Of a stretch of 64,000 bases of DNA, positions 3,654-60,437 are shown one piece after another. Under the pieces are notes generated by a model. It searched no databases. It was given only the letters and a program-made list of their open reading frames with translations, and was not told the DNA's origin. Position numbers and translations under genes: made by a program. Position 1 is the stretch's first letter, and every line of letters begins with the position of its first letter. The stretch lies in the NCBI GenBank assembly GCA_018992685.1, contig JACVGT010000011.1:32001-96000 (forward strand), in the 5' to 3' direction. This DNA comes from Theionarchaea archaeon. GTDB taxonomy: Archaea > Methanobacteriota_B > Thermococci > Methanofastidiosales > SZ-28-30.

Positions 3654-3686
3654 CTTTTCACCTCAAAAAAGAAAAAAGGGAAAGAT

Positions 3687-28063: not shown

Positions 28064-28105
28064 TTCTCTTTATTGCAGCAGTATCCATGGATCGAAGGGA
28101 GGGAC

Positions 28106-29461
28106 ATGAAGATGGATCATGTGAAGAAGCAATATCCTCGGGCTGTCCACCAGGTTGTCATCAGGCATACACGTGTTGGAGACTTCTTGATGTCAGGTGA
28201 CAGCTTGCTTGAAATGGATGGTCCGTCTCTTGAGGTAGTGAACTTGTGTGACGGTTGTCATACTGTCCAGGACATAGCAGAATGGGCAGCCAGAGAAGCA
28301 GACGAGCCTGTGGAAGAGGCGTATGAAGGGCTGATCCAGTTTCTGGACATGCTTTCAGGAGAAGGTGTCATTGTCTATAAGGATTCTCCAGACCCTTTCA
28401 ACCCTGTCTATTGCTATGATAGGCCGCTCTCTGTGATCTGGGAGATTACGTATGCATGCAATCAGCGGTGCAGGTACTGTATTGCTCAGGCTGGTACCCC
28501 TGATCCTGATGAACTCTCCCCACAGGAAATAGACAGAGTGCTGGACGAGCTGGTGGAACTTGGAATTGGGTTGATCAACATAACAGGAGGAGAGCCCCTA
28601 CTGAAAATGGATACTGCCCTTCACATAGCAAGGAGGGCCTCGGAGAATGGCATTGATCTCGAGCTGTTGACCAATGGAATGTTGATAACTTCCGACGTGG
28701 CTCAGAATATCTATGATGCAGGCATCCGGCATGCTCAGGTCAGTCTGGACTGTGTACGGCCAGAGGTTCATGATAACCAGAGGGGGGTGAAAGGTGCCTG
28801 GAAGAAAACTGTGAGTGGTATCCGAAACTTGAGAGATGCAGGAGTCAATGTCATGGCAGCGGCAGTCATGACCAGTGAAAACTTACAGTACTTTGAAGAG
28901 ACAAAGCAGTTTCTCAGGGAGATAGCTAATGTCGTCAAGATGGGTTCTGTTTTGCCAATGGGGCGGGGGGAGAACAGTATTTTTCTGCTCCCTCCTGAGG
29001 ACTATCTCACCTTTCTTAAATTGAGGAATACTGAAGAAGCCACGCTCACAGACTTCATTTTCTGCAGAGAGAAATGTTCTATAGGTACAACGCCTGTGAT
29101 TTCGCCACGGGGAGATGTGTATCCCTGCATGTTGACGAAATACGATGAACTGAAACTGGGAAATGTGAGGGATACGTCCATACACGCTATTTATGAGAAT
29201 TCTGATTTGCTTCAGGAGCTTTTCGACTGGAATGTGGACAAGGTAGATGCCTGCCATTCTTGTTGGAATCGCTACTACTGTGGAGGAGGGTGCAGGGGGT
29301 GCGCATTCGCATACCACGGGACTATTTATGGAAATGATCCATATCAATGTGCTGCCCGGAAGAAATTCGCTCGAGAGCTTCTTGTACGGGGAGATCCAGA
29401 AACTCGAAAAGCACTGAAACATCTAATCTTTTTAGCTAAGCATGACTCTGGTAGAGGATAA
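28106..29461 (+). CDS. RRE(PqqD-like)-radical SAM/SPASM peptide maturase C
   Basis: LCDGCHTVQDI; WEITYACNQRCRYC; TGGEP; SPASM GDVYPC..CHSC..CGGGC. Confidence 0.92.
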   Translation: MKMDHVKKQYPRAVHQVVIRHTRVGDFLMSGDSLLEMDGPSLEVVNLCDGCHTVQDIAEWAAREADEPVEEAYEGLIQFLDMLSGEGVIVYKDSPDPFNPVYCYDRPLSVIWEITYACNQRCRYCIAQAGTPDPDELSPQEIDRVLDELVELGIGLINITGGEPLLKMDTALHIARRASENGIDLELLTNGMLITSDVAQNIYDAGIRHAQVSLDCVRPEVHDNQRGVKGAWKKTVSGIRNLRDAGVNVMAAAVMTSENLQYFEETKQFLREIANVVKMGSVLPMGRGENSIFLLPPEDYLTFLKLRNTEEATLTDFIFCREKCSIGTTPVISPRGDVYPCMLTKYDELKLGNVRDTSIHAIYENSDLLQELFDWNVDKVDACHSCWNRYYCGGGCRGCAFAYHGTIYGNDPYQCAARKKFARELLVRGDPETRKALKHLIFLAKHDSGRG

Positions 29462-29463
29462 CC

Positions 29464-30705
29464 ATGGCTGATTATGATATAACGGATGAGAGTGTAGTCA
29501 AATTCCATGACTTATTCAGAGGTGAAGAGGACGAATCCATCACCGTAGGAAGGCAGGATATCGGGAAGTATGTCAGTCTCCCCAGAGATGCTGTGGAGGT
29601 CATCGATCTCCTGGATTCAGGACAGAAGGTTGGGGAAGTCAAAAGAGTCCTGAAGGACAAATATGGAGAAGACGTGGAAATCGAAGAGTTCATTGAAGAC
29701 ATGATTAAGAACGAAATGGTGAGGTCAATAGATGGATTCGAGATGGTCACGACGTCAAAACTACAAAAAGACCTTTTCAGTAGAGTAACTGCTCGCCATG
29801 TGGGGTGGATGTTCTCGAAGGTAGCATGGGTCATGTATATTGGCATGGCTATCTCATGTCTCATCATTTTTGCCCTTATTCCTGATTATATTCCATCTCC
29901 ACGTGATTATTTCTTCCATCCGTTGTATTCTGTGGCTGTTGGCTTCATGTTTTTCCTTGGATGGATTTTTGTGGCTATTCACGAACTGGCGCATTTGTTT
30001 GCGGCAAAATCTGTGGGAATTGAAGGGAATTTCAGTTTGAGCAATCGGTTGATCTTCATCGTGGCGCAGACAAACCTGGGCAATATCTGGACCATCCCGC
30101 GCAGAAGACGATTTGTCATCTATCTTGCCGGCATGGCGTGGGATTCAACATTGGTATTCATCTGTCTAGTACTGCTCTTCTTGTCTGATCATGGAGTGAT
30201 AACGCTCTCAGTCCTCTTGTACAAGTTCGTGAAAGCAGTGATTTTTGCCAAGGTGTGGACAATAATCTGGCAGTTTAGATTCAACATGCAGACCGATATC
30301 TACTACTCCATTGCCAACTACTTCAGGTGCCGAAATTTATTGGGCGATGCTCAGACCTACATAAAGAATTACAGTTCCAGATTCTATTCCCGAATAAAAG
30401 AGGCCGACATGAGCGGCATACCGGGAGATGAAATGAGAGTAATCAAGTGGTATGCTCTTCTCTACTTCGTTGGCACATCCATAACATTGGCCAGCTACTT
30501 TCTGAGAAATTTGCCCCTTGTCCTGCTCCAGATAATGAAAGCATTTGATGGACTCGTGATAGGCTACTCAGCAAGCCATGCAGATTTCACTGACGCAGTG
30601 GTGCTCATAGTCTTGAATGCCTTCAGATACGGACTCTTAGGATTCGTTATTTTGAGACCAAGATGGAATTGGCTGAAGGAGCGGTTTGCGGGTGCAAGAG
30701 CTTGA
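29464..30705 (+). CDS. RRE-fused intramembrane Zn-metalloprotease (M50/site-2-protease-like), putative leader peptidase
   Basis: Soluble N-terminal PqqD-like segment (VIDLLDSGQKVGEV...IEEFIEDM); TM-embedded HELAH; YLAG; FNMQTDIY in place of NxxPxxxxDG. Confidence 0.8.
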   Translation: MADYDITDESVVKFHDLFRGEEDESITVGRQDIGKYVSLPRDAVEVIDLLDSGQKVGEVKRVLKDKYGEDVEIEEFIEDMIKNEMVRSIDGFEMVTTSKLQKDLFSRVTARHVGWMFSKVAWVMYIGMAISCLIIFALIPDYIPSPRDYFFHPLYSVAVGFMFFLGWIFVAIHELAHLFAAKSVGIEGNFSLSNRLIFIVAQTNLGNIWTIPRRRRFVIYLAGMAWDSTLVFICLVLLFLSDHGVITLSVLLYKFVKAVIFAKVWTIIWQFRFNMQTDIYYSIANYFRCRNLLGDAQTYIKNYSSRFYSRIKEADMSGIPGDEMRVIKWYALLYFVGTSITLASYFLRNLPLVLLQIMKAFDGLVIGYSASHADFTDAVVLIVLNAFRYGLLGFVILRPRWNWLKERFAGARA

Positions 30706-44293: not shown

Positions 44294-47224
44294 ATGATTA
44301 AAGAATTCCACATTGAAGATGCCCAGAAGCTGGCTGACATGTTGAATAGGAGTGACGAAGCGTGGCCAGGGGGACTCACCCACGGCATAGACTTCACGGC
44401 AAAAAGCGTAATGGAAGATCGAAAAAGAGAGAGTATTCTTGCGACGTACTGTGCATGGGATGATGACAATATCGTGGGACTTACGGAAATCATCGAGTTC
44501 TGGAGAGATACCAATGTCCTGTATATCGACTTTCTCAACGTTGAACCCACCCATCATGGTCGAGGATATGGAAGAGATCTCCTCAAGACCTGTGTTGAGA
44601 AGGCTACTGAGTTGAAAAGTAAGAGACTGGATCTTCATACATGGTCAGGTAACATGAAAGCAGTTCCCCTCTACAAGAAGACAGGGTTTTTCTGGGTTCC
44701 TAAAACGTCTGTGCACATGAAGAATTTCCTCCCCTTGATCCTGAGCCTTCAGGCTGCCAAATTCTTCTTCGAAAAGCACAATTGGTATACTACCTTCAAG
44801 AGAGAACTGAAGGTTGAAGAAGATGACTATGATGGCATATATCCCTACCACTGGGAAGAAGCGGAGGATATCCTCTCTGTGGTGATAGATGCAGAATCAG
44901 GGGGGGTAATCCAGTTCGAAAACAACGATTTTACAGTCTACCAGAAGGTGGAACCCGTATTCGTGGGAGAAAAAGCTTCTGTGACATGGGAGATTAAGAA
45001 TAAGACCCCCACTCCCCTGGAGGTTGCATTGATATCTAGAGGAGAAGACGGTATTGTGATGGATTTCAGGAAATCCTTCACCGTTCAGGATGTCGAGACA
45101 GTGACGGCCACAGTCTCTGTTGACCCAGACATTGAAATCAGGAAAAAAGAGGAGCCTCCTCATCAGCTCTCTACCGACGTCATCATCAATGGAATACTTC
45201 TCCCTCTTGTTTCAGGATTGCGGGTAACTCATGGAGTAGAGGTCTCTACATTTCCCGAGTTTGTGGTGGTTCCTCCAGGCGAGCAGTCTATCATGGTGAT
45301 ACTCAAGAACAATAGGCAGAACCATGTTGAAGGGGTGATTACGTGCCAGAATACCGGTGAATCCCACGAGTTCAGTATAGAACCTGGATACAGCGAAGGT
45401 ATCCCCTTTACTCTGCGTTTGGCACGAGACTGTGAGCTGCGATTTTCCATAGAGGGCGCCCTGCCCATCCACATAGTACCCGTACGGGTGACGACGGGTG
45501 GCGCAGTACTAATGCAGAAAGGGAGAGACGTCATTCTTGAAAATGCTCACGCCAGAATGATTGTTTCGCTGGCGGGAGGGGAAACTTCCATCTTTGTGAA
45601 GAACACTCAAGAAATGGAGATCAAGTACGCCGGTGACGAACTGGGACCTCCGTACTGGCCATCAGAGTTGTTTAAAACATCGTACACGGTAAGAATGAAG
45701 CAGTGCACTGGCAAAGTTAGTGCAGAATTCACTGCCTACTCGAAAAAGTATGACACCACAGTTGTTCGTAAAGTTGAAATGGACGCTGGTCCTTTGATCA
45801 AAATCGAGTATTCCTTCACCCCACAAAGAGATCTTTACGTGCAGTTTGGCGGAGAGGCCAGTTTCGCCGGAGGGCTCTTAACTCTTCCGCTCACAGAGGG
45901 ATTCATTTCAGAACCTACTGTTGATGAGGATTTTCCTCTGGGTCATGGAGACCTTCCTGAAGACTCCACAGCATATGAAGAACAGTGGGCGTGCCACCAG
46001 ATGGGTGACGCAGTCCTCGGTGTCATATGGGAGAAATGCGTGAAAATGAACGTGAGTAGATATTCATTCCCCGGGATCATCCTGGACACCCGGAATCCGC
46101 GTCCATTCTACCTGTACGTGGGAAGAGGGACCTGGAAGGATGTGAGGAACAGCTGGTCTTTGCTGCACAACGTGGCGGTACCACCTGCGGAACCTAAAAG
46201 TGTGTGGGATGTCAGCCCTTCCCTGGTGGTGACTGTCGACGATATGATTACTGAGCAATTCACTCTCAGTAACAGGAGAAAAAGAACTCTGGAAGGGAAC
46301 GTAACCGGGATCCCTTTTAAAGCGGCGAGAGGGTCACCCTTTACCTTTGAAGCTGCCCTTGAGGCTCCAGACGTTGGCATCCACGAACGAGTTCTGCACA
46401 TGGAGACAGATCTCTTTTCCAGAAATATTCCCGTGATGGTTGTCAGAGCAGGAAAAAGGAGTAACGTCGTCGTCCTTGAAGAAGGAGATACCATACAGGT
46501 TAATAATGGATTATACCGGTTTGAAGTTGCTCCATCGTACTATGGATCAGTGGTCTTCTGGGGGGATAACGTGAACCACCTGCTGACCCCATATCCAGAG
46601 ACCACACAGCTTGCCTGGTTCCGCCCCTGGTATGGGGGGATCCATCCAGTCGTCTTTGCTGAAAAAAGAGATTTCCCTGGTCGAATGCATAAAGAAGCTT
46701 TCAGCTGCGCTATTGCAGAAAGAAAAACACACGGTATTTCATGGAAGGGCGTTACCGTGACATCTACCCTCCAGGAGATTAAGGGAATCGGCCTGGAAAC
46801 TTCCTACCTGACAGCAGGACACAGCAATCTTCTGGTCATCTGCCACACACTGAAGAATCTGACATCTGCCCCCCGTTCTGTGTATTCAGGAATGACATTT
46901 TTTGTACAGCCAGACGGTTCTCTAACAGATTCCACCTTGTACTACCGCAGCCCTCAATTGGTTCAAAGAAGACGAACCTCCTATGGAGGGCTATCAGCGG
47001 GCAGGGAATGGGCTGCGGTCCAAGGAACATCAACATTCCTCACCGTTGTGGCAGACAGTATTCATGCACTTGATCTGGGAAGAGAGGGCGCTCATATATT
47101 CAGCGCCAGAAAACGGGACATTCCCCCACACGGTTCTGTCACTGAATTCCAGTATTTAGTGGCAGCACACTCTCTGGAAGAATCGCAGGCATATAAGAGT
47201 TTGAGGGGATTGCAGTGGATCTAG
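44294..47224 (+). CDS. Large (976 aa) GNAT acetyltransferase-domain protein
   Basis: N-terminal LNVEPTHHGRGYGRDLL and NMKAVPLYKKTGF GNAT motifs; long beta-rich C-terminal region unassigned. Confidence 0.8.
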   Translation: MIKEFHIEDAQKLADMLNRSDEAWPGGLTHGIDFTAKSVMEDRKRESILATYCAWDDDNIVGLTEIIEFWRDTNVLYIDFLNVEPTHHGRGYGRDLLKTCVEKATELKSKRLDLHTWSGNMKAVPLYKKTGFFWVPKTSVHMKNFLPLILSLQAAKFFFEKHNWYTTFKRELKVEEDDYDGIYPYHWEEAEDILSVVIDAESGGVIQFENNDFTVYQKVEPVFVGEKASVTWEIKNKTPTPLEVALISRGEDGIVMDFRKSFTVQDVETVTATVSVDPDIEIRKKEEPPHQLSTDVIINGILLPLVSGLRVTHGVEVSTFPEFVVVPPGEQSIMVILKNNRQNHVEGVITCQNTGESHEFSIEPGYSEGIPFTLRLARDCELRFSIEGALPIHIVPVRVTTGGAVLMQKGRDVILENAHARMIVSLAGGETSIFVKNTQEMEIKYAGDELGPPYWPSELFKTSYTVRMKQCTGKVSAEFTAYSKKYDTTVVRKVEMDAGPLIKIEYSFTPQRDLYVQFGGEASFAGGLLTLPLTEGFISEPTVDEDFPLGHGDLPEDSTAYEEQWACHQMGDAVLGVIWEKCVKMNVSRYSFPGIILDTRNPRPFYLYVGRGTWKDVRNSWSLLHNVAVPPAEPKSVWDVSPSLVVTVDDMITEQFTLSNRRKRTLEGNVTGIPFKAARGSPFTFEAALEAPDVGIHERVLHMETDLFSRNIPVMVVRAGKRSNVVVLEEGDTIQVNNGLYRFEVAPSYYGSVVFWGDNVNHLLTPYPETTQLAWFRPWYGGIHPVVFAEKRDFPGRMHKEAFSCAIAERKTHGISWKGVTVTSTLQEIKGIGLETSYLTAGHSNLLVICHTLKNLTSAPRSVYSGMTFFVQPDGSLTDSTLYYRSPQLVQRRRTSYGGLSAGREWAAVQGTSTFLTVVADSIHALDLGREGAHIFSARKRDIPPHGSVTEFQYLVAAHSLEESQAYKSLRGLQWI

Positions 47225-48225
47225 CACCAGAGCATGCTATAATAGCAAAGGGTGTTGTAAAGACATTCAGGAAAAAGGGACGTCGGAAATATGGGATAGG
47301 TCCGAAGATAACCCCGGATGAACTCATTTATGCAGTGAACGGTGTTGATCTTACCGTACGCAGGGGAGAACTTTTTGGGTTGTTGGGCCCCAATGGTGCG
47401 GGGAAAACCACTCTCGTAAAGTGTTTGTCCACCCTTCTCCTTCCCAACAAGGGGACTGCCATCATCAGTGGGCATGACATTATCAATGATCCTATTGCTG
47501 CCAGGGAGTGCATAGGGATTACCACAGGGGGAGAAAGGACATTGTACTGGAAGTTGTCAGGAAGAGATAATCTCAGATACTTTGCTGCCTTGTATGGACT
47601 CTCAAGCGAGGAAGCAGATAGGCGGATCAGCTACCTCATGAAGATCATGGGCCTGGAAGATAGGCAGTATGAACGCATTGAAAAATATTCCACAGGGATG
47701 CGCCAGAAAGTGTCCATTTCAAGAGCTCTGATCCATGATCCACCTGTTCTGCTGCTGGATGAGCCAACTCTGGGCCTTGATCCCTCGTTTTCTCGGTTCA
47801 TACGTTCTTTCATCAAGAAAGATTTGAACCAGAAGCAGAAAAAGACCATTATTCTTACCACGCACTATATGGACGAGGCAGATCAGCTGTGTGACCGTAT
47901 TGCCATTATGAATGAGGGGAAAATAGTGGCTGTGGATACACCCGAAGTCCTGAAGAGAAGGATACCCCAAGACGAGGTCCTGGAGGTCAGATGTCTGGGA
48001 CATGCTGATTTCTCCGGGATTGGACAGAGAGTGTATGCAGATTCTGTAGAAGGAGTGACCATATACCGAATTCATGCAGAAAATGTGGAAGATATCATGT
48101 CACAGGTGATACAGGCTGCTCACTCAGCAAAGATTCTCTCCATGAATGTTACCAAGCCCACCTTGGAGGATGTATTCATACATCTGACAGGGGCACGCCT
48201 GACAGGTGAGGACAATGAGCAGTGA
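47215..48225 (+). CDS. ABC-2 exporter ATP-binding protein (DrrA-like)
   Basis: GPNGAGKTT, YSTGMRQK, LDEPT, TTHYMDEA, PTLEDVF. Confidence 0.92.
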   Translation: MDLAPEHAIIAKGVVKTFRKKGRRKYGIGPKITPDELIYAVNGVDLTVRRGELFGLLGPNGAGKTTLVKCLSTLLLPNKGTAIISGHDIINDPIAARECIGITTGGERTLYWKLSGRDNLRYFAALYGLSSEEADRRISYLMKIMGLEDRQYERIEKYSTGMRQKVSISRALIHDPPVLLLDEPTLGLDPSFSRFIRSFIKKDLNQKQKKTIILTTHYMDEADQLCDRIAIMNEGKIVAVDTPEVLKRRIPQDEVLEVRCLGHADFSGIGQRVYADSVEGVTIYRIHAENVEDIMSQVIQAAHSAKILSMNVTKPTLEDVFIHLTGARLTGEDNEQ

Positions 48226-49036
48226 ATTGTTTCTGGTGAAAGAAGAAATCAAGAAAAATATTAAGATACTGTTGTGCTACCCAGTGGAGATCATGTTCTG
48301 GGCCATTTTTCCCATCCTGTGGGTTATCCCCTTTATTTTTCAGGGCGAGGCACTGGTGGGAGGTTCTACCAGTTCTCAATTCAAGGAATTGGCAGGGACG
48401 GAGCAATTCATCCCTTTTGTGTTGATAGGAGCTATCATATCTACATATTTGTTCTCCTCTCTGTATGGGATGGGAGGAAGTATTCGCATGGAATCGTACT
48501 GGGGTACCCTGGAGTACATTCTGGGGAGCCCTGCTCGCAAGATCTCTGTGCTCATGGGGAAAGCTCTCAGCGAGTCGATTTCTTCCACGTTCTTTGTGGC
48601 CACCCAGGTTCTCATATGCGTATTCGGGTTCGGGCTGAAACTAACGGTAGCAAAGGTTTTGCCGATCCTCCTGGTGCTGCTTCTGCTGGTGGCGGGATTG
48701 TACGGGATGGCTATTGCCCTTGCAGGAGTGACGCTGCAGATAAAGGAAAGCAGATCACTGGTCCATACCATAGAATATTTATTCTATCTGTTCTCGCCCA
48801 TCAGGTATCCCGTGGGAATAAACCCAGTGATTGCCACTGTTTCACTGGTGATACCCCTGACGTATGCCTTGATTGCAATCAGAGGGATATGGCTCCTAAA
48901 CCAGCCTATGTCAACCTTGTGGGGATACGTTGGGCTGCTGGCTCTCTTAGATGTGATATTCATTGGCGTGGGATATACAATCTTTTACTACATGGAAAAA
49001 AGGGTGAGGAAAAGTGGATCTGTTTCCCAGTACTAG
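48215..49036 (+). CDS. ABC-2 type permease
   Basis: About 6 TM; E..GTLEY..SP, YP, PLTYAL. Confidence 0.88.
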   Translation: MSSELFLVKEEIKKNIKILLCYPVEIMFWAIFPILWVIPFIFQGEALVGGSTSSQFKELAGTEQFIPFVLIGAIISTYLFSSLYGMGGSIRMESYWGTLEYILGSPARKISVLMGKALSESISSTFFVATQVLICVFGFGLKLTVAKVLPILLVLLLLVAGLYGMAIALAGVTLQIKESRSLVHTIEYLFYLFSPIRYPVGINPVIATVSLVIPLTYALIAIRGIWLLNQPMSTLWGYVGLLALLDVIFIGVGYTIFYYMEKRVRKSGSVSQY

Positions 49037-49865
49037 CCGGATTCTGCGGTATCTGCGCGGCATGAATGCTGAGAATGTAAAAGAATGGAAGATTGAGCTA
49101 ACGTACAGGGCAGATTTTATCAGGGGAATGCTGGAGCCCTTGATTTTTGTATTTCCCTTCGTGCTATTTGCCATGTCGCTCATGGGTGGAAGGACATCCT
49201 CCGTTCTGGAAGGGCTGACTGGCGTGTCTGATGGTATCACCTACACCATCATTGGATACATCTTCATGGGATTTCTGAATACTGCAGTCTGGGGCATGGG
49301 ATTTGCCCTCAGGAAGGAACAATGGTACGGGACCCTGGAGTCTATATTTGTTGCCCCTGTTCCCAGATGGGTATATGTTCTGGGAATGGCCCTCCATTCT
49401 ACTGTCCATCAGGGGATCATATTGTTCTTCCAGATCCTGGTAGTCTACGTCTTATTCGGTGTGATACTCAATGTCCAGGGAGTTCTGCCTGTTCTTGTGT
49501 TCATTGCTCTCATGTTGATATCGTTGGTGGGGCTGGGGCTCATGGTTTCTGGGCTGGCCCTCATATTCAAAGAAGGATGGATTGTCTCAGAAGTCTTGTA
49601 CTCTTTGATTACTATTGTGACACCAATTGCATATCCTCTGGCCGTGCTTCCCCCTTTGCTCCAGAAGATATCTCTGACCATGCCCACGACGTATGCCATT
49701 ACGGGGATCCGTCACTTCTTGATTGATGAGAATATGGGAGTGGGATTGTTGGATTCATACTCCCGGCTGATTATCATCGGAGTGTGCTGGATTATCACGG
49801 GATTGCTTATATTTCAGATAGTGGACAGAAAAGTGAGAAGGGAAGGGACTCTGGCAGAGTACTAG
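49014..49865 (+). CDS. ABC-2 type permease (paralogue)
   Basis: About 6 TM; EQWYGTLES..AP, YPLAVLP, PTTYAI. Confidence 0.88.
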   Translation: MDLFPSTSRILRYLRGMNAENVKEWKIELTYRADFIRGMLEPLIFVFPFVLFAMSLMGGRTSSVLEGLTGVSDGITYTIIGYIFMGFLNTAVWGMGFALRKEQWYGTLESIFVAPVPRWVYVLGMALHSTVHQGIILFFQILVVYVLFGVILNVQGVLPVLVFIALMLISLVGLGLMVSGLALIFKEGWIVSEVLYSLITIVTPIAYPLAVLPPLLQKISLTMPTTYAITGIRHFLIDENMGVGLLDSYSRLIIIGVCWIITGLLIFQIVDRKVRREGTLAEY

Positions 49866-51891: not shown

Positions 51892-52150
51892 CTATTATTA
51901 ATCGGCGTGAATGAGGTATGTCAGTCTTCAATAAAAAAGAGAAAGGAGGATGATATGGCGCAATACTATTATTAATCAATAGTATATAAAGCTTTCGGTT
52001 CATGACTCATATTTCGTCCTGATCACTTCACTTCATAAGCACATTCATTCAACCATTGCACGAAGTGGGACCTTCTCCTATGGAAAAACTCCTGAAATCC
52101 CCTCTTATTTTTTTCATCATCCATTCTCATTATTACACGACAGTTTAAAT

Positions 52151-52167
52151 AGAAACCTTTTTAAATA
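52151..52167 (+). promoter_or_regulatory. BRE/TATA promoter of RiPP cluster 2 precursor
   Basis: AGAAACC-TTTTTAAATA about 45 nt upstream of ATG 52211; AAGGAGGTG RBS at 52196-52204. Confidence 0.7.
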
Positions 52168-52210
52168 ATCCATATCATAAGTAATAGATAAGCTAAAGGA
52201 GGTGTAACAA

Positions 52211-52351
52211 ATGATAAATGTGCCTATGGTATTTGAGGGTCCTGCCCTGCTGGCCAACACAATGGTTCCGTTAGGGCGGGGGACTAATGTCTGCTGCTAC
52301 AATGATACTGATGGAGACTACTACTGCTGCATCAAGACTGAAGTCCTATAA
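52211..52351 (+). CDS. Putative RiPP precursor peptide 2 (46 aa, MINVPMVFEGPALLANTMVPLGRGTNVCCYNDTDGDYYCCIKTEVL), absent from the ORF track
   Basis: Manual translation; strong RBS, promoter, oligo-T tract; upstream of rSAM/SPASM and PqqD genes. Confidence 0.85.
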   Translation: MINVPMVFEGPALLANTMVPLGRGTNVCCYNDTDGDYYCCIKTEVL

Positions 52352-52358
52352 AGAATTG

Positions 52359-52382
52359 TTTTTTCTCTTTTTTTGTCTTTTT
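52359..52382 (+). terminator. Oligo-T archaeal terminator/attenuator after precursor 2
   Basis: TTTTTTCTCTTTTTTTGTCTTTTT directly after the peptide stop. Confidence 0.65.
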
Positions 52383-52591
52383 CCGATTTGGGAAATACGT
52401 TGTGAATGGGGAGGTTGTGCTAGTGTCATTCAAAAGTCGTCTATCTTGTCAGGGTGAGATTATACATTCATATGCAATCAGACGGTCATGTGATTGCCAT
52501 GGAAGCAGAATCAGAATCGTACCTTGTGTCATAAGAGTCCAGTGGTTCTCTTCGTATCCCTTTTGTCCCCTCTCCACAGAGACGTGGTAGC

Positions 52592-53680
52592 ATGCTGGCA
52601 AAAGTGGAATTGACGGCCCGCTGCAATTTGAACTGTATGCACTGCAGCGCATCCATTTATAGACCCTCTCCAGAATGGAAGACAAGCCAATTACTAGGGC
52701 TACTTGAACAGCTCATAGATAATGGATATGATAGCTTCGATCTCAAAGGGGGTGAACCGTTTATCCGTTCTGACATATTCGAGATATTGGATTTCCTGGA
52801 ACGACACGATGCTTCATTCTTTCTTTCCACCAATGGACTTCTTCTTGATGAAGAAAAGATACGCAGGGTGCTCTCCTATCAGAGGCTTTCGACCTTCACT
52901 GTCAGTCTTGACGGCGCAACGAAAGAGACACACGAGGCCATGAGAGGAAAGGGCACATTTCATCCAACTCTAGAAATCATTAGGAGGATCGCTGAAACAA
53001 GAGAAATGCTAGGTTCACAGATACGGTTTGGTCTCAACTATGCCCTGACAAAGGTCAACTACCAGGAAATCAAAGATGTCTTTCACCTTGCAGATGAGCT
53101 TGGATTCAGTGCAGTGTTTGTTCTCTGCCTGTCTCTTATCGGCAACGCTCTTGAACATAAGGGTGACCTGTTCTTGCTAGAAAGAGACGAGCTTGCTGCG
53201 CTGAAGGAAGGAGCCACTGTTCTGAGGAAGATAGATATTGCTCGTCAGATCAGAGGGCTGTCTCCACTCGAATTCAACGTTGAGTTGTTCCCCTATAAAT
53301 GGAAGTGCCGGCTGATGAAATGGTCAGGACATTACAAAGGTTTCATAACAAAGAACCAGTGTAGTGCTGGGGTCAGCGAAATATATGTCGGAGCCGACGG
53401 TACAATCTATCCGTGTGAAGGAGTGAGAGTCTTTCTGAAGATGGTGGAAGAGGAAGTTGGACATTACACACGACCAAGTGTTTGGAATTATACAATCAAT
53501 GAGGCGAGACAGGAGGAATCTTTCAAGAAGATTGTAGACTTCCTCCATGATTACGACCGATTGTTTGAGTCCATAGAGCCCTGCAACACATGCGAACACC
53601 TCAGAAAATGTACAATATGTCCCCTGTTTGCCCGGGCAGACGGAAAGGTGAATAGATGCACAGAAGAGGTGTTGATTTGA
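52592..53680 (+). CDS. Radical SAM/SPASM-like maturase D (no fused RRE)
   Basis: CNLNCMHC, GGEP, VSLDG; C..GTIYPC..CNTC-x5-CTIC..C. Confidence 0.9.
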   Translation: MLAKVELTARCNLNCMHCSASIYRPSPEWKTSQLLGLLEQLIDNGYDSFDLKGGEPFIRSDIFEILDFLERHDASFFLSTNGLLLDEEKIRRVLSYQRLSTFTVSLDGATKETHEAMRGKGTFHPTLEIIRRIAETREMLGSQIRFGLNYALTKVNYQEIKDVFHLADELGFSAVFVLCLSLIGNALEHKGDLFLLERDELAALKEGATVLRKIDIARQIRGLSPLEFNVELFPYKWKCRLMKWSGHYKGFITKNQCSAGVSEIYVGADGTIYPCEGVRVFLKMVEEEVGHYTRPSVWNYTINEARQEESFKKIVDFLHDYDRLFESIEPCNTCEHLRKCTICPLFARADGKVNRCTEEVLI

Positions 53681-53771
53681 TGTATTATTTCGAGATCTTT
53701 TCACGCGAGCAAAGACGTTGGATGAATGGAGCTGGAGTACTCTTCAGAAGATCTGGAATCTGGGTGACGTC

Positions 53772-54893
53772 ATGAAGGTGAGACTTGACATTACAACTCG
53801 GTGTAACCTCAATTGCCTCCATTGTGGAGCGACGGAATTCAAGACAGAGAGAGAATGGACAACTGAGGAAGCACTCCAAGCTTTTGAGAGCATGATTTCT
53901 TATGGTATAGACCACTTTGATTTTCTAGGCGGAGAGCCATTTATTCGCAAGGACATCCTGGAACTTTTCTCCCATTTGAGTGATCAAGGCGCGAGGATTC
54001 TCGTGGTTACCAATGGTCTACTCCTGAATGAGGAAATTATTGATTTTCTGGCCAATCTGGAAACCTTCTCCGGAATTTCTGTGAGCATTGATGGGGCATC
54101 AAGAGAAGTGCATGAGACTATTCGCGGCAAAAATACATTTGACCGTACTGTAGCGAATGTACAGGCCCTGTTATCCAGAAGAAATAGGAGAACCCCATCG
54201 TTCACTGTTGGCCTTACCTGTGTTTTGAATCGGATGAATGTTCTGGAATCTGGCGCAATGATGGAACTGGCGGATCAGATTGATGTGGATAGTGTTTCAT
54301 TCACACCTATGGGATGGATTGGCAATGCCAGGAAAAACAAAGATGACCTGTATATAGACCCCCAGGAAGAGTTCACCGCCTATGATAAGGCAATTCGCAG
54401 AGTAATCCAGATTAACAGAGTTCGTGCAATTAAGGGAAAACATCCTTTACGGTTTCCTATCGATAGCATACCTTTCACCTGGAAATATCACTTTGTGAAA
54501 AAGTATCCCTTGGTTCACCAGATAAGTGGTAAATTCAAGTGCTTGGCTGGAACGGGGACATTTCACGTGGACGGTTCAGGAGTGTTGTACCCCTGCGAGG
54601 CTGTCAAAATTCATAGAGCATCAATAGAGTCTGAGATCGGGGAGTACAGGAGCATGTCTCTGCCCGAGTACACCTTTGAAGAGATTGTCAAGAGTGGATT
54701 TTTCAAGAAAACTGTAGCATACATAAGAGATAGACATCATCTGACCGAGAACGTTGTACCATGTAAAGACTGCAAGTACGGTGATGGATGCAGCGTCTGC
54801 CCACTTCATGCGAGGTCTGAAGGAATCGTCCGTAATTGTGTGGAAGATACCATGAAGGGTGTAGTTGAAAGAGGTGATCTGCTTGAATCCTGA
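53772..54893 (+). CDS. Radical SAM/SPASM-like maturase E (no fused RRE)
   Basis: GGTGA RBS before ATG 53772; CNLNCLHC, GGEP, VSIDG; C..GVLYPC..CKDC-x5-CSVC..C; paralogue of 52592-53680. Confidence 0.9.
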   Translation: MKVRLDITTRCNLNCLHCGATEFKTEREWTTEEALQAFESMISYGIDHFDFLGGEPFIRKDILELFSHLSDQGARILVVTNGLLLNEEIIDFLANLETFSGISVSIDGASREVHETIRGKNTFDRTVANVQALLSRRNRRTPSFTVGLTCVLNRMNVLESGAMMELADQIDVDSVSFTPMGWIGNARKNKDDLYIDPQEEFTAYDKAIRRVIQINRVRAIKGKHPLRFPIDSIPFTWKYHFVKKYPLVHQISGKFKCLAGTGTFHVDGSGVLYPCEAVKIHRASIESEIGEYRSMSLPEYTFEEIVKSGFFKKTVAYIRDRHHLTENVVPCKDCKYGDGCSVCPLHARSEGIVRNCVEDTMKGVVERGDLLES

Positions 54894-55497
54894 AACAACA
54901 TATGTACACTTAGGTGAAGACGTCTACTGGCACAGGGATGTTTCAAGAGTGTATATTTTCTCTGAGAAGACAGGAGAATCCATGCAAGGAAACATGACAG
55001 CAGGTAGAATCATGGAGCTCTCCGATGGAACCCGCTCTGTTGAAGAGATCGGGAAAACACTCCTGAGAGAGTTCACAGAAGGTCCGAGCTTTGAGGAGAT
55101 TCTAGAATTGGTCACTGACTTCCTCCTAGAATGTGAAAACAGAGGGTTTGTAGAACTACGAGCATCCCCGGCAGAGAAGCCTTCCTCCAGAGATCTCAAG
55201 GAATTTACACACGCTGATGTTGAAAGACTTCTCGAGGACAATGCTGTTCTGATCATAGATGAGACGGCATCTTTTGAGCTCAAAGAAGACGACAGTCTGA
55301 TTACGTACAGCGCCAGGGATGGCGAGTACCTGAAGCTCAGTAAAGAAGAGAAAGAAATCCTCACAATAATGCTGGAGGAGAAACCACTTCAGGAGGTACT
55401 CTCCGATTTTTCACAAGAGCACAAGGAAGGGTCCAGAGATATTCTCGTGGAATTCGCAACACAGTTGCTTAACAGGGGATTGGCAAGAATACAGTGA
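54883..55497 (+). CDS. Stand-alone PqqD-family peptide chaperone with two RRE-like domains
   Basis: GAGGTGA RBS with TTG start; NMTAGRIMELSDGTRSVEEI...FL...GFV, plus a second similar beta3/alpha3 unit ending QLLNRGL. Confidence 0.8.
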   Translation: MNPETTYVHLGEDVYWHRDVSRVYIFSEKTGESMQGNMTAGRIMELSDGTRSVEEIGKTLLREFTEGPSFEEILELVTDFLLECENRGFVELRASPAEKPSSRDLKEFTHADVERLLEDNAVLIIDETASFELKEDDSLITYSARDGEYLKLSKEEKEILTIMLEEKPLQEVLSDFSQEHKEGSRDILVEFATQLLNRGLARIQ

Positions 55498-55634
55498 AGG
55501 AGTGTGTTGTGAACTGCTCTCTTCTCAAGTCTCGGTTATCACCTCCAAGTCTCGGAAAGAACAGATGGACCGGCTTAACCGAAAGATTCTTAAGATCTCA
55601 CACAACCCTTCTATAATGAGAAGGAGGCTGCCCC

Positions 55635-57455
55635 ATGATCCTGCAGAGCACAGTACCTTATAGAGAAGACATTCCTAATGCTGCATTAGGATATCTCAAA
55701 GGGTTTCTCACAGCAGAAGGCATTCCTGTCACTGCTCTTTACTGGAACCTCATTCTGGCCCGCAAGATTTCGGAATTTTACAGAGTACTGGCAGATTATT
55801 CGAAGGAGATGGGATTGTTTCATCCCGAGTCCGTTGGGCTATATATTTGCAGGAATCTGCTGACTGACCATTCTGATAATTCCAACCCAACAAAATTTGA
55901 TCTGATTTTCTCATCGATTTTTTCAAGAGAAGAGAGATCAGAGATGATCAGCTCAATACAGGATGAGATTTATCAGTATATCCAGAGGAACAGATTGCAT
56001 GAGGTACCTGTTGTTGGATTCACCTTGAAGACATATCAATGGATGCTGGGTTCCTACTTGATCCAGTGTTTCAAAGAGATGAACACTGATGTCACTATTG
56101 TGATAGGTGGGATTACTGATGAGTCCCAGGCAATCACCTACATGAAGATATTTGAATTGGCTGATTTTGCCATCTGGGGAGAGGGTGAATTCCCACTGGT
56201 GCACCTCGTGAGAACTCTGGAAGAAGGTACAGACGTTTCCGGAGTGCCTAACCTTGTATATCGGAGTGATAAGACCATTCTTTCGACAAAAGTATTTGGT
56301 GACTCGTACTCCCTCCTTGATTCATATCCTTTTGCAGATCACTCTGATTATTTTGAAACTGTGAGGAGGTTCGATCCTTTCAGGAAATACGTCACTATTC
56401 CCATATGGGGAAGCAGGGGCTGCCCATGGGACAGATGCAAATTCTGCACTTCGAGCGGAGGATACAAGTATCGCTTCCGCTCACCGGAAAACATTGTTGA
56501 AGAGATAGAGGTCCAGTCAAAAAAACACCGTGCGGACGACTTCATTTTCGTGGATACTGAACTTGCAGGCAACAAGAAGAGATTCTTGAGTCTTCTGAGA
56601 CTGCTCATGCAGAGTATCGTCAGTAGAAAAAGACCATATCGACTGAGTGGGGAAATATCTCCTCTTTCAATAGACAGAGAGACGGCGCAATACATAAAGC
56701 GTGCGGGATTCGTCAGCCTGCAGATTGGATTTGAGGCAGTCACTGACACACTCTTGAGAAAGATGCAGAAGAGGCAGATGATTGTTCACAACATTGAGAC
56801 ACTAAAGATCGGAGGTCAACATTCGCTACCTCTGAGAGGTCTCAACATCATTAGGGGAATTCCAACAGAAACCGCAGGCGATGTTCTGGAAAGTTGTATT
56901 AATTTGAAATTTTGGCGGTTCCTTCTATCTGATTTTCGTATCAGGCCCACTTTCTTCTTGCTGCACAAGAGATCTCTCTTTGACAGAGAGATGGCAGAAG
57001 AGGAAAAAGAGAAATGGAAGGCGGATTCACTCTGGGATGAGATTGTTCCAGCCCGTCTCGTGCCTGAATCTGATCGATTTGAATTCTCAAGTTTTCGAAG
57101 GGATCGGTTTGACCACCATCACCTGTGGGATATTTTTGAAGATCTCTTGATGTTCTATACAAAACAGAAAAGTTCCTATGAATGGATTGAATACCCAGAT
57201 GGTTCTCTTGTCGAAGAAAAAGGATTCAGAACCCACAAGCTCGCACTCAATCGAGAGCAGACAGATATTTTGGCTTTCTGCGATTCAGTAAAATCACTGT
57301 GTGATGTGGAAGAGAAATTCTCTCACTTGTGTGAGAATGAACTCTTTGAACTTTTAAATGGTCTGAAGACTTTGGGATTACTCTATTACGATAAGGAAAG
57401 CGGCAAGGCCATTTCGATTCTCGACACATCTAAAAGAAGAACTGAAGCGGGCTGA
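55635..57455 (+). CDS. B12-binding (class B) radical SAM enzyme, RiPP C-methyltransferase-like
   Basis: ALGYLKGFL, IVIGG, GEGE B12-binding features; SRGCPWDRCKFC; QIGFE...LLRKMQK; C-terminal wHTH-like segment. Confidence 0.82.
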   Translation: MILQSTVPYREDIPNAALGYLKGFLTAEGIPVTALYWNLILARKISEFYRVLADYSKEMGLFHPESVGLYICRNLLTDHSDNSNPTKFDLIFSSIFSREERSEMISSIQDEIYQYIQRNRLHEVPVVGFTLKTYQWMLGSYLIQCFKEMNTDVTIVIGGITDESQAITYMKIFELADFAIWGEGEFPLVHLVRTLEEGTDVSGVPNLVYRSDKTILSTKVFGDSYSLLDSYPFADHSDYFETVRRFDPFRKYVTIPIWGSRGCPWDRCKFCTSSGGYKYRFRSPENIVEEIEVQSKKHRADDFIFVDTELAGNKKRFLSLLRLLMQSIVSRKRPYRLSGEISPLSIDRETAQYIKRAGFVSLQIGFEAVTDTLLRKMQKRQMIVHNIETLKIGGQHSLPLRGLNIIRGIPTETAGDVLESCINLKFWRFLLSDFRIRPTFFLLHKRSLFDREMAEEEKEKWKADSLWDEIVPARLVPESDRFEFSSFRRDRFDHHHLWDIFEDLLMFYTKQKSSYEWIEYPDGSLVEEKGFRTHKLALNREQTDILAFCDSVKSLCDVEEKFSHLCENELFELLNGLKTLGLLYYDKESGKAISILDTSKRRTEAG

Positions 57456-57560: not shown

Positions 57561-59420
57561 CTATTCGGGTGCGATTTTTCTTATTTCTGCTGTTAGAATA
57601 TCGTTAATCAGCTTTCCATCCGCCTTCCCTCTTAGTTCTTTCATGCATACTCCCATCAGAGGAGCAACTGCTCGCATACCCTTCTCTTTTATTGTATCTC
57701 TGTTTTCTGCTACTATCTTCCGTACTATGTCTTCAACATCTTCTCGGGAAACTGGTTCCACTGTAATATCCTTGATCTTCTTTCCTTCTGCTATTTTTAG
57801 AAGAATATCATCCAGTGCTTCTTTTACTATTTGATGGTTGGCCAGTCTCTCGAGACAGAGTCTCAATTCATGTTCATCTTCAATGTATTTTCCCTCGTGT
57901 TCCAGTGCCTTGAGGATGTCAACCACTTTGATGAAGAGTGTTGGCTTGAGGTTCATGGTCTGGGTTTCTTCAAATACGTTCTCATATCCAGAATTGAGTA
58001 TTTTTTCTGCATGCTCCGGGGTCAGTGCGTACTCAGTGATGAACCGCTTGAGTTTTACATGAGGCAGCTCCGGCAGCTCTTTGTGGATACCTTCAATCCG
58101 TTCTCCTGAAATGACCAGTGAAGGGATATCTGTTTCTGGATACATTCGTTCTGCTCCCGGAAGAGGACGGGCATATCTGGTGTTCCCATCAGGGAGTGGT
58201 TCTCTGGTTTCTTCAGGTACTCCGGTTAGAGCCTCCTGAGCTCTGACTAACACTTCTTCAAGTGCTCTCCTTGACTTTTCTTCTTCATCAACTACCAGCA
58301 CAAAGGCGTCTTCTCCTTTCCTGTCCAATCTCTGACTGACTGCCGAAACCTCCTGGTCTGTAATTCCGTATGCGGGGAGTTCATCCGAATGGAAAATCCC
58401 TCCCACCCCCACCACTTTCGCCCTGTCAGAAAACTCGGTACCAAGCCGGCGACCTGGCTGTATCTCCTGTCCTACCAGGCCGCAGAATCCAGGAAGGATG
58501 ATACCAAGGACTCTTCCTCCTCTTTCCAGGATATTCTTGATGATTTTTGCCTTTGTGTCTGAGAAGCAGTCAGTCACATCTATAATTCCTTCATGTACAG
58601 AGGCTTTCCTCATTTCCAGCTCTCTCCGTATTTCTACAAGAGCAAGCTGCCTCTGCACTTCTCTTTCAATGTAAACAGCAATCAGATCCAGCTGCTGGAC
58701 ACCCTTGATCTCGCAGCGGGACCCCTCTTTTATAGAGATATTGAGGTCTTCCCTGATGGTGCCAAGTCCCCGCTTCACCTTGAGGGTGGCTCTCAGTACC
58801 TGTCCAATGGCAAGAGCAATATCTCTGGCTTCTTCTGGAGTTCTAATATCAGGATCTGTGGCCACTTCTATCAAGGGAATTCCCAGACGATCTAGCCTGT
58901 ATACCTTCTCTTCTCCCCTTGTTTCTATGATGCGGGCTGCATCTTCCTCTAGACAGACGGTAGGTATCCCATACTGCTTTCCTTCTACGTGCAGGACCCC
59001 ATGAGTGGCCAGGAGCAGTGTTCTTTGAAATCCAGAGGTGTTGGACCCATCGATGACAATCTTTCTCATGGTGTGCACTTCGTCTACAGGGCGTGCTCGT
59101 AGCAAGAGAGAAACTGCAAGACCTGTATCAACAGCTTCATTGCTGAGAGGGTGAGGGGGTTCTTCATCCAGTTCCACAAGGCATACGCTGTCATATCCCT
59201 GGTACACGAATGTTAGTCCCTTCTTGACCTCTGCTAAGGCTGCCTGATCGATTTTCCCTTTTTCGGAGAAAGATGGCCTTAATCTCCTTTTAATTTCGAA
59301 TTGAGGCTCATCTGTACGGAGTACTGTCGGACAGTGGCAGAAAAGCTTTCTCCCTGTATCCAACTGTTGATGGATTTCCAGCCCTACCTTCAATCCAATC
59401 TCCTCATACATGAGAGTCAC
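57561..59420 (-). CDS. gatE: Glu-tRNA(Gln) amidotransferase subunit E
   Basis: GLEIHQQL, MRKIVIDGSNTSGFQRT, RLDRLGIPLIE, RPLPGAERMYPETD. Confidence 0.97.
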   Translation of the reverse strand: MTLMYEEIGLKVGLEIHQQLDTGRKLFCHCPTVLRTDEPQFEIKRRLRPSFSEKGKIDQAALAEVKKGLTFVYQGYDSVCLVELDEEPPHPLSNEAVDTGLAVSLLLRARPVDEVHTMRKIVIDGSNTSGFQRTLLLATHGVLHVEGKQYGIPTVCLEEDAARIIETRGEEKVYRLDRLGIPLIEVATDPDIRTPEEARDIALAIGQVLRATLKVKRGLGTIREDLNISIKEGSRCEIKGVQQLDLIAVYIEREVQRQLALVEIRRELEMRKASVHEGIIDVTDCFSDTKAKIIKNILERGGRVLGIILPGFCGLVGQEIQPGRRLGTEFSDRAKVVGVGGIFHSDELPAYGITDQEVSAVSQRLDRKGEDAFVLVVDEEEKSRRALEEVLVRAQEALTGVPEETREPLPDGNTRYARPLPGAERMYPETDIPSLVISGERIEGIHKELPELPHVKLKRFITEYALTPEHAEKILNSGYENVFEETQTMNLKPTLFIKVVDILKALEHEGKYIEDEHELRLCLERLANHQIVKEALDDILLKIAEGKKIKDITVEPVSREDVEDIVRKIVAENRDTIKEKGMRAVAPLMGVCMKELRGKADGKLINDILTAEIRKIAPE

Positions 59421-60437
59421 CTACATTGACAGTAAAAGCCAGAACACTGCACCCAGGGCAATGCTTCCGATGCCGATAAGCCCGTGATACACTGATCTCT
59501 TTTCTGAGCCTACTGCATACATCACCATCAATGTAACACCTGCAGCCCCGTTGAATGCTGCCAGATACGCAATCCTGTGCACAAAGCCCAGGGACAGAAT
59601 GTTGAACACTGCCAGAAGATAGATCCCCAGACTGAATGCCAGTGATGCCAGACAGCTCCCGACCCCTGCAAAGAATAGACTGATTCCATCACCTTCTGCA
59701 GTCAGGTCATCGAGCGCAGTCCTGATTTTCGAGGGCACAGGGAGTCTGCTGACCACCCCAGTTCCAAGAGAGAGTACTCCGAGGGCTACAGCCACCACTG
59801 CCAGTGGGAATTCCAGAGGCACTATCATATTGGCCAGAAACACTACCGTTGACAGAGCTGTACAGAAGATGAGGCTGGTGATTATGTACGCTCCGAAAAA
59901 CGGTACACCTTTCCCTTTGACTCGTGAAACAATGTGTGAATTCAGAGGCGTTAGCCCAGATATGAGTCCTGCAATCATCAGAAAAGGGAGCAGAAAAGTC
60001 TTTCCCGAAACCTGAGGAGTTGCCGTATGATCATACACGACAATGCAATCCCTGTGCTCACACAAAGCGATGTTGCAGCCACTTTCAGAACACGTTTCAA
60101 TCTTCTTCCTGATTAGTTGATGGGAGGTAGGCCCATACCCCCCAAAGTGATCCTTCCCAATGAATACCATGGGAGTGCTGTACCCTTTGAAATCCAGGTT
60201 GTACACCTGTTTGAAGAGATCATAGAGTTTTTTGCTCTCCTCTTCTGAGATCTCGTACCGGTGAATCACCATGGTAGGATACTCCAGAGATAGTTCTTGT
60301 AAGAACTCATTCATGGAGCTGCATCCTCCACAGTATTCTGATTCAAAAATAAATACATCTATGAATTTTGTGGGGATTCCGTACAGCAGAGGTACTGCAA
60401 TGATTGCCATTAACATAATAAGTACGACTTTTTTCAT
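59421..60437 (-). CDS. Exported thioredoxin-fold (CGGC) domain fused to multi-TM CcdA/DsbD-like domain
   Basis: Signal peptide; FESEYCGGC..TPMVFIG; AGLISGLTP TM region. Confidence 0.7.
   Translation of the reverse strand: MKKVVLIMLMAIIAVPLLYGIPTKFIDVFIFESEYCGGCSSMNEFLQELSLEYPTMVIHRYEISEEESKKLYDLFKQVYNLDFKGYSTPMVFIGKDHFGGYGPTSHQLIRKKIETCSESGCNIALCEHRDCIVVYDHTATPQVSGKTFLLPFLMIAGLISGLTPLNSHIVSRVKGKGVPFFGAYIITSLIFCTALSTVVFLANMIVPLEFPLAVVAVALGVLSLGTGVVSRLPVPSKIRTALDDLTAEGDGISLFFAGVGSCLASLAFSLGIYLLAVFNILSLGFVHRIAYLAAFNGAAGVTLMVMYAVGSEKRSVYHGLIGIGSIALGAVFWLLLSM

Follow-up and report, generated by a model that had tools for sequence, protein, structure and literature searches.

A candidate radical SAM peptide gene cluster with a repeated G-x3-C-C precursor motif in a Theionarchaea contig

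The DNA considered here is a stretch of 64,000 nucleotides (nt) from a Theionarchaea archaeon (contig JACVGT010000011.1 of assembly GCA_018992685.1, positions 32,001 to 96,000), called the window in what follows. It holds a group of genes (Table 1) of the kind that makes peptides produced on the ribosome and modified after translation (RiPPs): a short open reading frame (ORF) for a putative precursor of 46 amino acids (aa), two paralogous radical S-adenosylmethionine (SAM) enzymes with SPASM-type cysteine sets (maturases A and B), a two-domain PqqD protein of the type that forms a RiPP recognition element (RRE), and a B12-type radical SAM enzyme. The predicted peptide has the layout C28C29-x9-C39C40, which can be read as two G-x3-C-C units, G24...C28C29 and G35...C39C40. 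An earlier prediction made from the letters alone (the original prediction) had described this ORF, its ribosome-binding site, a TATA box and an oligo-T tract, the CC-x9-CC layout and the spacings C28-X3-D32 and C40-X3-E44; all are found as quoted. The protein collection also holds an identical peptide as a called gene (P0126).

Several elements around the precursor gene are candidates for its control. The TTTAAATA boxes may form its promoter, and the oligo-T tract directly behind its stop codon may act as a terminator or attenuator; comparable T-rich tracts lie 3' of both precursors in a related metagenome locus (L071, see below). A bacterial promoter and terminator scan of the locus gave counts close to the shuffled expectation, its sigma-70 model being bacterial and not applicable to archaea. 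The oligo-T tract opens a spacer of 240 nt (52352-52591) between the precursor stop and the maturase A start; in relatives, the open frame of maturase A continues upstream of the start, in extensions that are not conserved. Two of the starts in Table 1 are probably too early. The true start of maturase B is likely the ATG at 53772 (373 aa), and that of the PqqD protein is likely the TTG at 54883 (204 aa), which stands behind AGAGGTGA and overlaps the end of maturase B.

Table 1. Features of the candidate peptide-maturation cluster in the window, in order of position.
Feature	Position	Strand	Basis or remark
Two TTTAAATA boxes, candidate archaeal TATA elements	52144-52151 and 52160-52167	+	Read from sequence
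Shine-Dalgarno sequence AAGGAGGTG	52196-52204	+	Read from sequence; 6 nt to the precursor ATG
Precursor peptide, 46 aa	52211-52351	+	ORF list and translation; matches the family profile
Oligo-T tract (T6, T7, T5), candidate archaeal terminator or attenuator	52352-52385	+	Directly 3' of the precursor stop
Radical SAM/SPASM maturase A, 362 aa	52592-53680	+	Radical_SAM E 4.5e-21; SPASM 19.0 bits (cut-off 21.5)
Radical SAM/SPASM maturase B	53718-54893	+	Radical_SAM E 2.5e-25; paralogue of A
Two-domain PqqD/RRE protein, 210 aa from TTG 54865	54865-55497	+	Pfam PqqD 33.6 bits (cut-off 23.4), residues 31-96
B12-type (class B-like) radical SAM enzyme, 606 aa	55635-57455	+	TIGR03975 E 1.1e-45

The precursor family and its repeated motif

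Metagenome contigs of the Joint Genome Institute (JGI) were scanned with a profile of alignment A1, which consists of maturase A of the window and 18 relatives (19 proteins). Among the 65 loci obtained, L071, L072 and L073 carry orthologues of maturase A at 59-61% identity and L074 carries an orthologue of maturase B together with the end of an A gene; the other 61 are distant. The order of the genes differs from locus to locus. In the window it is precursor, A, B, PqqD, B12-type enzyme, and in L071 it is A, B (truncated at residue 328), PqqD and two precursors. In L074, the end of A is followed by a precursor, B, a second precursor and PqqD, with the B12-type gene next on the other strand, and L072 has two precursors, A, a precursor, about 450 nt without B, and a further precursor. 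L073 is too short for gene order to be judged. A six-frame scan with a regular expression (Cys-Cys, 5-16 residues, Cys-Cys) found eight small ORFs that share the leader of the window peptide, all adjoining the orthologous enzymes (two in L071, four in L072 and two in L074), along with many unrelated matches in the distant loci. The position of a precursor beside the enzymes is kept in all four loci with enough sequence, and in each of the nine peptides (window, L071, L072, L074) GGAGGTG stands 5-7 nt upstream of the ATG. For one orthologous pair of peptides dN/dS is 0.15 (Sd 11.5, Nd 8.5, 44 codons); this covers one of four pairs, the remaining three being unequal in length.

The family reaches beyond these loci. 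A word-indexed search with a profile of the nine peptides returned nine peptides, all with E<=4e-8. When a profile of 12 peptides was run with HMMER against 1.84e9 representative proteins, 27 proteins matched at E<=1e-3, of which 25 are peptides of 43-63 aa that bear the leader. E-values of the family span 1e-9 to 1e-15, that of the window peptide being 4.5e-13. The two long matches, P0150 and P0154, have no leader and were dropped from the family. In P0150 (276 aa), a unit of 11 residues that closes with G-T-x-V-C-C occurs nine times in tandem, and four stretches of the protein align with the core region of the peptide profile (E 3e-6). No Pfam or NCBIfam model is matched at a meaningful level by any of the 12 aligned peptides, which bears out the original prediction that the product belongs to a family it did not recognise. 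The same prediction had taken the small ORF for a precursor gene and had named lack of conservation at homologous loci as what would speak against this; conservation is found both in L071, L072 and L074 and in the profile search.

The statistics of the motif come from 32 distinct peptides, with three near-duplicates known only from loci left out; the 32 include one frameshifted peptide that has only one Cys-Cys. The leader carries the signature M-x-[DN]-V-x-M-x-F-x-x-P-x-L and takes up approximately residues 1-23 of the window peptide. In alignments of 9 and of 12 peptides the invariant columns are M1, F8 and P11 in the leader and G24, C28, C29, G35, C39 and C40 in the core. The core is a repeated G-x3-C-C, with two units in 27 peptides and three in four, and Gly is found at position -4 in 67/67 Cys-Cys pairs. 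Position -5 is mostly Leu, Phe, Tyr, Trp or Met. Successive Cys-Cys pairs are separated by 9 residues in 19 cases, 10 in 13 and 11 in three, and the residues between them vary strongly across the family. The tail after the last Cys-Cys is short, with 1-8 residues in the 31 intact peptides; 4/32 peptides end one residue past this pair and 11/32 end two residues past it. Contig size and source, the one basis available for placing the three-unit peptides, match, for example, in two groups (7344 for P0006, P0152 and P0168; 3621 for P0003 and P0153) and suggest that these peptides, too, adjoin maturase A and the PqqD protein.

The maturases, the PqqD protein and the B12-type enzyme

Enzymes with a SPASM domain follow the consensus C-x9-15-G-x4-C ... 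C-x2-C-x5-C-x2/3-C ... C, in which 7-8 Cys bind two auxiliary clusters. Maturase A combines an N-terminal CX3CX2C (CNLNCMHC) with eight C-terminal Cys (C239, C257, C275, C331, C334, C340, C343 and C356). In alignment A1, C257-x12-G270-x4-C275, C331-x2-C334-x5-C340-x2-C343 and C356 are invariant, and C239 is present in at least 90% of the proteins. Maturase B, which is 35% identical to A over 361 residues, keeps seven of the C-terminal Cys and lacks the equivalent of C239. Judged by these residues, both maturases follow the SPASM pattern of CX3CX2C plus seven or eight C-terminal Cys and can be regarded as putative SPASM enzymes. The Pfam SPASM model, which falls short of its cut-off in the window, reaches 23.5 bits (cut-off 21.5) in the maturase A fragment of L074. 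Neither protein has a fused RRE; both start directly at the radical SAM motif.

An AlphaFold2 model of maturase A (mean predicted local distance difference test score, pLDDT, 82.7; predicted template-modelling score 0.84) shows a predicted fold in which a SPASM/twitch extension comes after a partial TIM barrel, with the CX2CX5CX2C region below pLDDT 50. The top Foldseek matches of this model are SkfB, SuiB, CteB and anSME, with E-values of 1e-14 to 1e-12, template-modelling (TM) scores of 0.55-0.67 and identities of 16-21%. By sequence, the closest solved structure found with the A1 profile is again SkfB (2e-15), over the radical SAM core only. The original prediction of two paralogous radical SAM enzymes with SPASM-like Cys sets thus agrees with the identity between A and B, with the Cys pattern and with solved peptide maturases as nearest structures.

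Close relatives of maturase A form a well-separated group. Among 257 matches with E<=1e-3 (5810 candidates), 19 protein clusters lie at 52-65% identity and the next match is at 28%. Against NCBIfam, maturases A and B reach 60-100 bits with AhbD, WgkB, ScmE, StsB, the mycofactocin maturase and PqqE, the cut-offs of these families being 265-650. With the model of the sactisynthase family StsB (NF045574), whose cut-off is 625, the two maturases score 87.6 and 85.5 bits in alignments that span the radical SAM core only, and their sequences do not place them in this curated family. No curated ranthipeptide or SCIFF maturase family is among the best 25 of the 66 and of the 77 NCBIfam families that match A and B at E<=0.01.

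Orthologues of maturase B are 61% identical in L074 and 58% identical in L071, where the gene is truncated. The L071 protein (3480-4466) has 328 aa and ends before CX2CX5CX2C, with a match covering residues 16-342. In L072, the roughly 450 nt without maturase B (2432-2887) lie between two precursors, and a few start codons there resemble the start of B when inspected by eye. The truncation in L071 and the absence in L072 may be either natural decay or artefacts of metagenome assembly.

The PqqD protein was described in the original prediction as a tandem PqqD. For the N-terminal half this is borne out by Pfam (Table 1). The C-terminal half of the window protein has no Pfam PqqD match, and that of the L071 orthologue scores 21.9 bits. 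In an AlphaFold2 model built from a shallow alignment of three sequences, residues 111-210 are modelled with confidence (pLDDT 71-95) as four strands and three helices, and the N-terminal half is poorly modelled. Foldseek E-values for the C-terminal domain are weak (0.004 to 0.06), and the well-fitting matches are the leader-binding RREs TbiB1, lasso B1, the TigE RRE and PqqD. The best of these, the RREs of TbiB1 and lasso B1, have TM scores to the target of 0.71-0.75, root-mean-square deviations (rmsd) of 2.3-2.6 Å and E-values of 0.0075 to 0.06, with the RRE of TbiB1 first (TM 0.75, rmsd 2.3 Å). Winged-helix domains of the PqqD family consist of three strands plus three helices and bind a leader peptide, which is the predicted role here as well. 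A domain of this family (RRE) is thus present in the protein, and on the strength of the model the tandem label appears reasonable and partly shown, with an RRE-like fold in the half that Pfam does not detect. Besides the window protein itself, 13 further protein clusters at 51-63% identity were found (14 matches with E<=0.001 in all).

The last gene of the cluster encodes a putative B12-type radical SAM enzyme, a kind also named in the original prediction, in which Pfam detects Radical_SAM. Its best family, TIGR03975 ('RiPP maturation radical SAM C-methyltransferase'), scores 156.3 bits, which is below the cut-off of 281.85, in an alignment of residues 12-587 to profile positions 12-598 of 606. 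Thirteen further B12-radical SAM families in NCBIfam also match, with E-values of 2e-24 to 2e-6. The cluster motif is CX4CX2C at C263/C268/C271; in both the window and L074 enzymes it reads C-P-W-[DN]-[RK]-C-K-F-C (residues 263-271 of the window protein) in place of the usual CX3CX2C. The L074 orthologue is 53% identical and reaches 26.4 bits with the Pfam B12-binding model (cut-off 32.1), which is not reported for the 606-aa protein of the window. No solved relative of this protein was found by sequence search. Since the gene is present in two of the three loci that extend far enough (window and L074, and not L071), its distribution marks it as an accessory tailoring gene and not as part of the core.

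Proposed chemistry and alternatives

The locus shares its logic with known sactipeptide and ranthipeptide systems (SkfB/SkfA, CteB/CteA, AlbA, PapB, CrpC/CrpA), in which a radical SAM enzyme with auxiliary Fe-S clusters acts on a leader plus a Cys-rich core, with recognition by a PqqD-like RRE, and among solved structures SkfB and CteB come nearest to the maturases in both sequence and fold. The differences are considerable. The solved enzymes are just 16-21% identical and no family hidden Markov model reaches its cut-off (StsB, 87.6 versus 625); the RRE is a separate two-domain protein and not an N-terminal fusion; there are two paralogous maturases; and the core consists of G-x3-C-C units, in which the Cys are adjacent and have no acceptor that is conserved downstream of them. 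In archaea, the SPASM enzyme CrpC has been reported to install ranthionine links, in a study limited to proteins of at least 100 aa (PMC13692751, accessible part of the paper). According to the same part of that paper, its substrate CrpA has at least 100 aa with C-X-X-Q/D motifs, and CrpC belongs to TIGR04463, which sets both apart from the present system.

A second likeness is to the SynChlorMet (SCM) cassette (NCBIfam TIGR04250, TIGR04251, TIGR04248), which combines two paralogous radical SAM/SPASM enzymes without RRE (ScmE, ScmF) with a free-standing PqqD-like protein (ScmD) and small precursors. To our knowledge, this cassette is experimentally uncharacterised. ScmE is the best or third-best NCBIfam match of the two maturases. 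However, the scores (ScmE 90.3/95.8 and ScmF 70.4/56.3 bits against a cut-off of 400; ScmD 19.7 against 100) do not place the proteins in these equivalog families, and here the lineage is archaeal instead of bacterial, the precursors are of an unrelated family and no peptidase of the ScmC type is present. A third likeness is to TIGR03975 itself, whose profile aligns with the 606-aa enzyme end to end, and the gene of this enzyme lies in a peptide-maturation cluster; the enzyme differs in its score below cut-off, its CX4CX2C motif and its presence in only part of the loci of the family.

Few archaeal modified peptides have been characterised so far. As far as the accessible part of a recent account shows, the characterised archaeal RiPPs are limited to a few haloarchaeal lanthipeptides, and archaeal radical SAM peptide clusters are only predicted classes (PMC12144867). 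No paper or curated family on these peptides or enzymes was found; most subscription journals and supplementary tables lay outside the search, so that a listing in a genome-mining supplement is possible. The logic of leader peptide, RRE and SPASM radical SAM enzyme is known, and what is new is the family of precursors, their repeat motif and the clade of enzymes. The result is an archaeal system that is defined and open to test, with precursors built on a simple repeated motif and the enzyme set that belongs to them. Its natural variants (two or three units; with or without the B12-type enzyme or maturase B) are a ready-made series for structure and function.

The reading we favour, and hold to be probable if by no means secure, is that the locus is a biosynthetic cluster for a RiPP of a new, apparently archaeal family, in which Cys thioethers are formed in each unit and methylation by the B12-type enzyme is accessory. 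The conserved leader-bearing precursors beside orthologous SPASM enzymes and a PqqD protein agree with the original prediction of a RiPP-type cluster. Since the core is invariant at no residues but Gly and the two Cys of each unit, these must take part in the conserved reaction. Among the maturases with the nearest folds, SkfB and CteB form S-C links and anSME acts on Cys; in archaea, a SPASM enzyme installs thioethers, going by the accessible part of the paper (PMC13692751). By this analogy, the most likely outcome is that thioether cross-links from Cys are made inside each G-x3-C-C unit.

A mechanism of this kind can be sketched as follows. The free-standing tandem RRE protein would bind the leader and present the core to the two SPASM enzymes, which have no RRE of their own. 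Each enzyme would use a 5'-deoxyadenosyl radical to take a hydrogen from a residue inside G-x3-C-C, and the resulting carbon would be joined to one of the two adjacent Cys sulfurs, giving small thioether rings unit by unit. One Cys of the unit, or both, would be linked to a carbon lying N-terminally, with the invariant Gly at -4 as either the acceptor (at its alpha-carbon, as in a sactionine) or a turn residue that enables the ring. The eight- and seven-Cys auxiliary-cluster sets of the paralogues suggest a division of labour between them. Where it is present, the B12-type enzyme might add methyl groups, and the oligo-T tract could lead to short precursor transcripts in excess over those of the enzymes.

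Several points weigh against this reading. The scores of A and B are far below the cut-off of every named radical SAM family listed, so that a function cannot be transferred from any of them. The case for thioethers draws on just two things, namely Gly and Cys-Cys as sole invariant core residues and the reactions of related SPASM enzymes. The invariance among the matches is, in addition, partly a matter of construction, as the query profile carried those same columns. For each of the four three-unit peptides the search gave two matched stretches, from which we take the third unit to be outside the main profile match. These third units serve as a more independent check of the Gly rule, and all four keep Gly at -4. 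The truncation of maturase B in L071 and its lack in L072 cast doubt on any strict assignment of one enzyme to each Cys, unless those contigs are decayed or misassembled. Finally, none of the remaining 132 species-representative genomes of the phylum has the cluster, which is therefore rare or sporadic.

A bolder extension is possible, though it strikes us as doubtful. In this case (G-x3-C-C)n would be a new RiPP class, so far apparently confined to Theionarchaea/Methanofastidiosia, in which two SPASM paralogues and a tandem RRE turn the Cys pairs into a structure unseen in peptides. Such a structure might be a fused bis-thioether bicycle that has the alpha-carbon of the invariant Gly and a residue close to it as anchors, with the seven-Cys paralogue binding a substrate thiolate at an open auxiliary-cluster site and the eight-Cys paralogue not doing so. 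Adjacent Cys as the invariant target of two SPASM enzymes are without described precedent in the searchable papers and curated families, and the chemistry may therefore be new.

It is rather unlikely that the Cys-Cys pairs are instead metal or redox ligands of a small peptide or cofactor precursor, with the radical SAM enzymes carrying out epimerisation, C-C cross-linking or backbone modification near Gly. Four or six clustered thiols are typical of metal ligands, SPASM enzymes also perform reactions other than thioether formation (SuiB and anSME are among the closest folds), and both the heme b synthase AhbD and WgkB are among the best NCBIfam matches. On the other hand, up to four divergent precursors occur in one locus (L072), which fits diversifying peptide natural products rather than cofactors, and the variable residues between the Cys are likewise unlike a cofactor precursor. 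The three-unit peptides carry six Cys, so that no fixed four-ligand site is conserved, and with a core invariant only at Gly and Cys-Cys any other reaction would be left without a conserved target.

An improbable alternative is PapB-like chemistry with a ranthipeptide or sactipeptide as product: each maturase would join a Cys to the acidic residue found four positions further downstream, here C28 to D32 and C40 to E44. This was the cue taken from PapB in the original prediction, and the window peptide indeed has both Cys-X3-Asp/Glu spacings; SPASM enzymes of the same fold make such links, among them archaeal CrpC with its ranthionines (PMC13692751, accessible part). The cue does not carry over to the family. 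Asp or Glu at +4 is found for the first Cys in only 9/67 pairs and for the second in 8/67, the columns of D32 and E44 are not conserved in the alignments, and 15/32 peptides have just one or two residues after the last Cys-Cys. Scarce acidic residues and short tails mean that such a link cannot be the conserved reaction, and by sequence the conserved downstream Cys-Xn-acceptor that would indicate a ranthipeptide is not seen. It is very improbable that the small ORF is open by chance and that the substrate of the enzymes is another one: short ORFs are common (102 of at least 40 aa in 14 kb), but the comparative data (profile E-values of 1e-9 to 1e-15 in 1.84e9 proteins, position kept in four of four loci, a Shine-Dalgarno sequence in nine of nine and a dN/dS of 0.15) effectively refute this reading.

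Distribution and neighbouring genes

All organism names attached to family members are 'Theionarchaea archaeon' or 'Candidatus Methanofastidiosia archaeon'; in one look-up of relatives, four of 10 clusters carried such a name. Maturase A was found among the 34 genomes of the order in the window's genome only, and the A1 profile gave the same result among 133 genomes of the phylum, where 15 of up to 48 candidates were scored in some genomes. The three closest genomes are 84-91% complete. When the peptide profile was run against the species-representative genomes of the phylum, the window's own genome (8.5e-17) was the only convincing match, and three partial matches with E about 0.008 were taken as chance. 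The single window peptide, searched in the order, gave extra matches at chance level (E about 0.3). A pattern scan of species-representative genomes returned 65 loci, all distant (best-segment identity 20-44%) and none of the close family; its patterns came from a single query, so that relatives at 55-65% may be missed.

On its downstream side the cluster ends at the convergent gene gatE (57561-59420, minus strand). Taken with the names of relatives, the pair gatE/gatD indicates an archaeon of the Theionarchaea/Methanofastidiosia group. Between gatE and gatD lies a predicted membrane protein of 338 aa (59421-60437, minus strand) with an N-terminal C-G-G-C and no Pfam family; it has no similarity to a protein of 328 aa near the L074 cluster. 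On the upstream side, 2.3 kb from the precursor, the stretch 44294-49865 encodes a protein of 976 aa (an N-terminal GNAT domain and no other recognised domain), followed by a DrrA-like ATP-binding cassette (ABC) ATPase and two ABC-2 permeases. The ABC ATPases of the window and L074 are just 29% identical and the 338- and 328-aa proteins dissimilar, and membership of the upstream M29 peptidase, ABC-2 transporter and GNAT protein in the cluster is not supported. A six-frame Cys-Cys scan found no peptide of the G-x3-C-C type near a second, different peptide-maturation cluster (25211-30705), which consists of three tandem PqqD-radical SAM-SPASM fusions of 446, 454 and 462 aa and then a 413-aa protein without a Pfam family.

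The listed sequencing runs that hold the stretch number 15, of which five may be the source sample; all are DNA, from marine, estuarine, mangrove and other sediment metagenomes.

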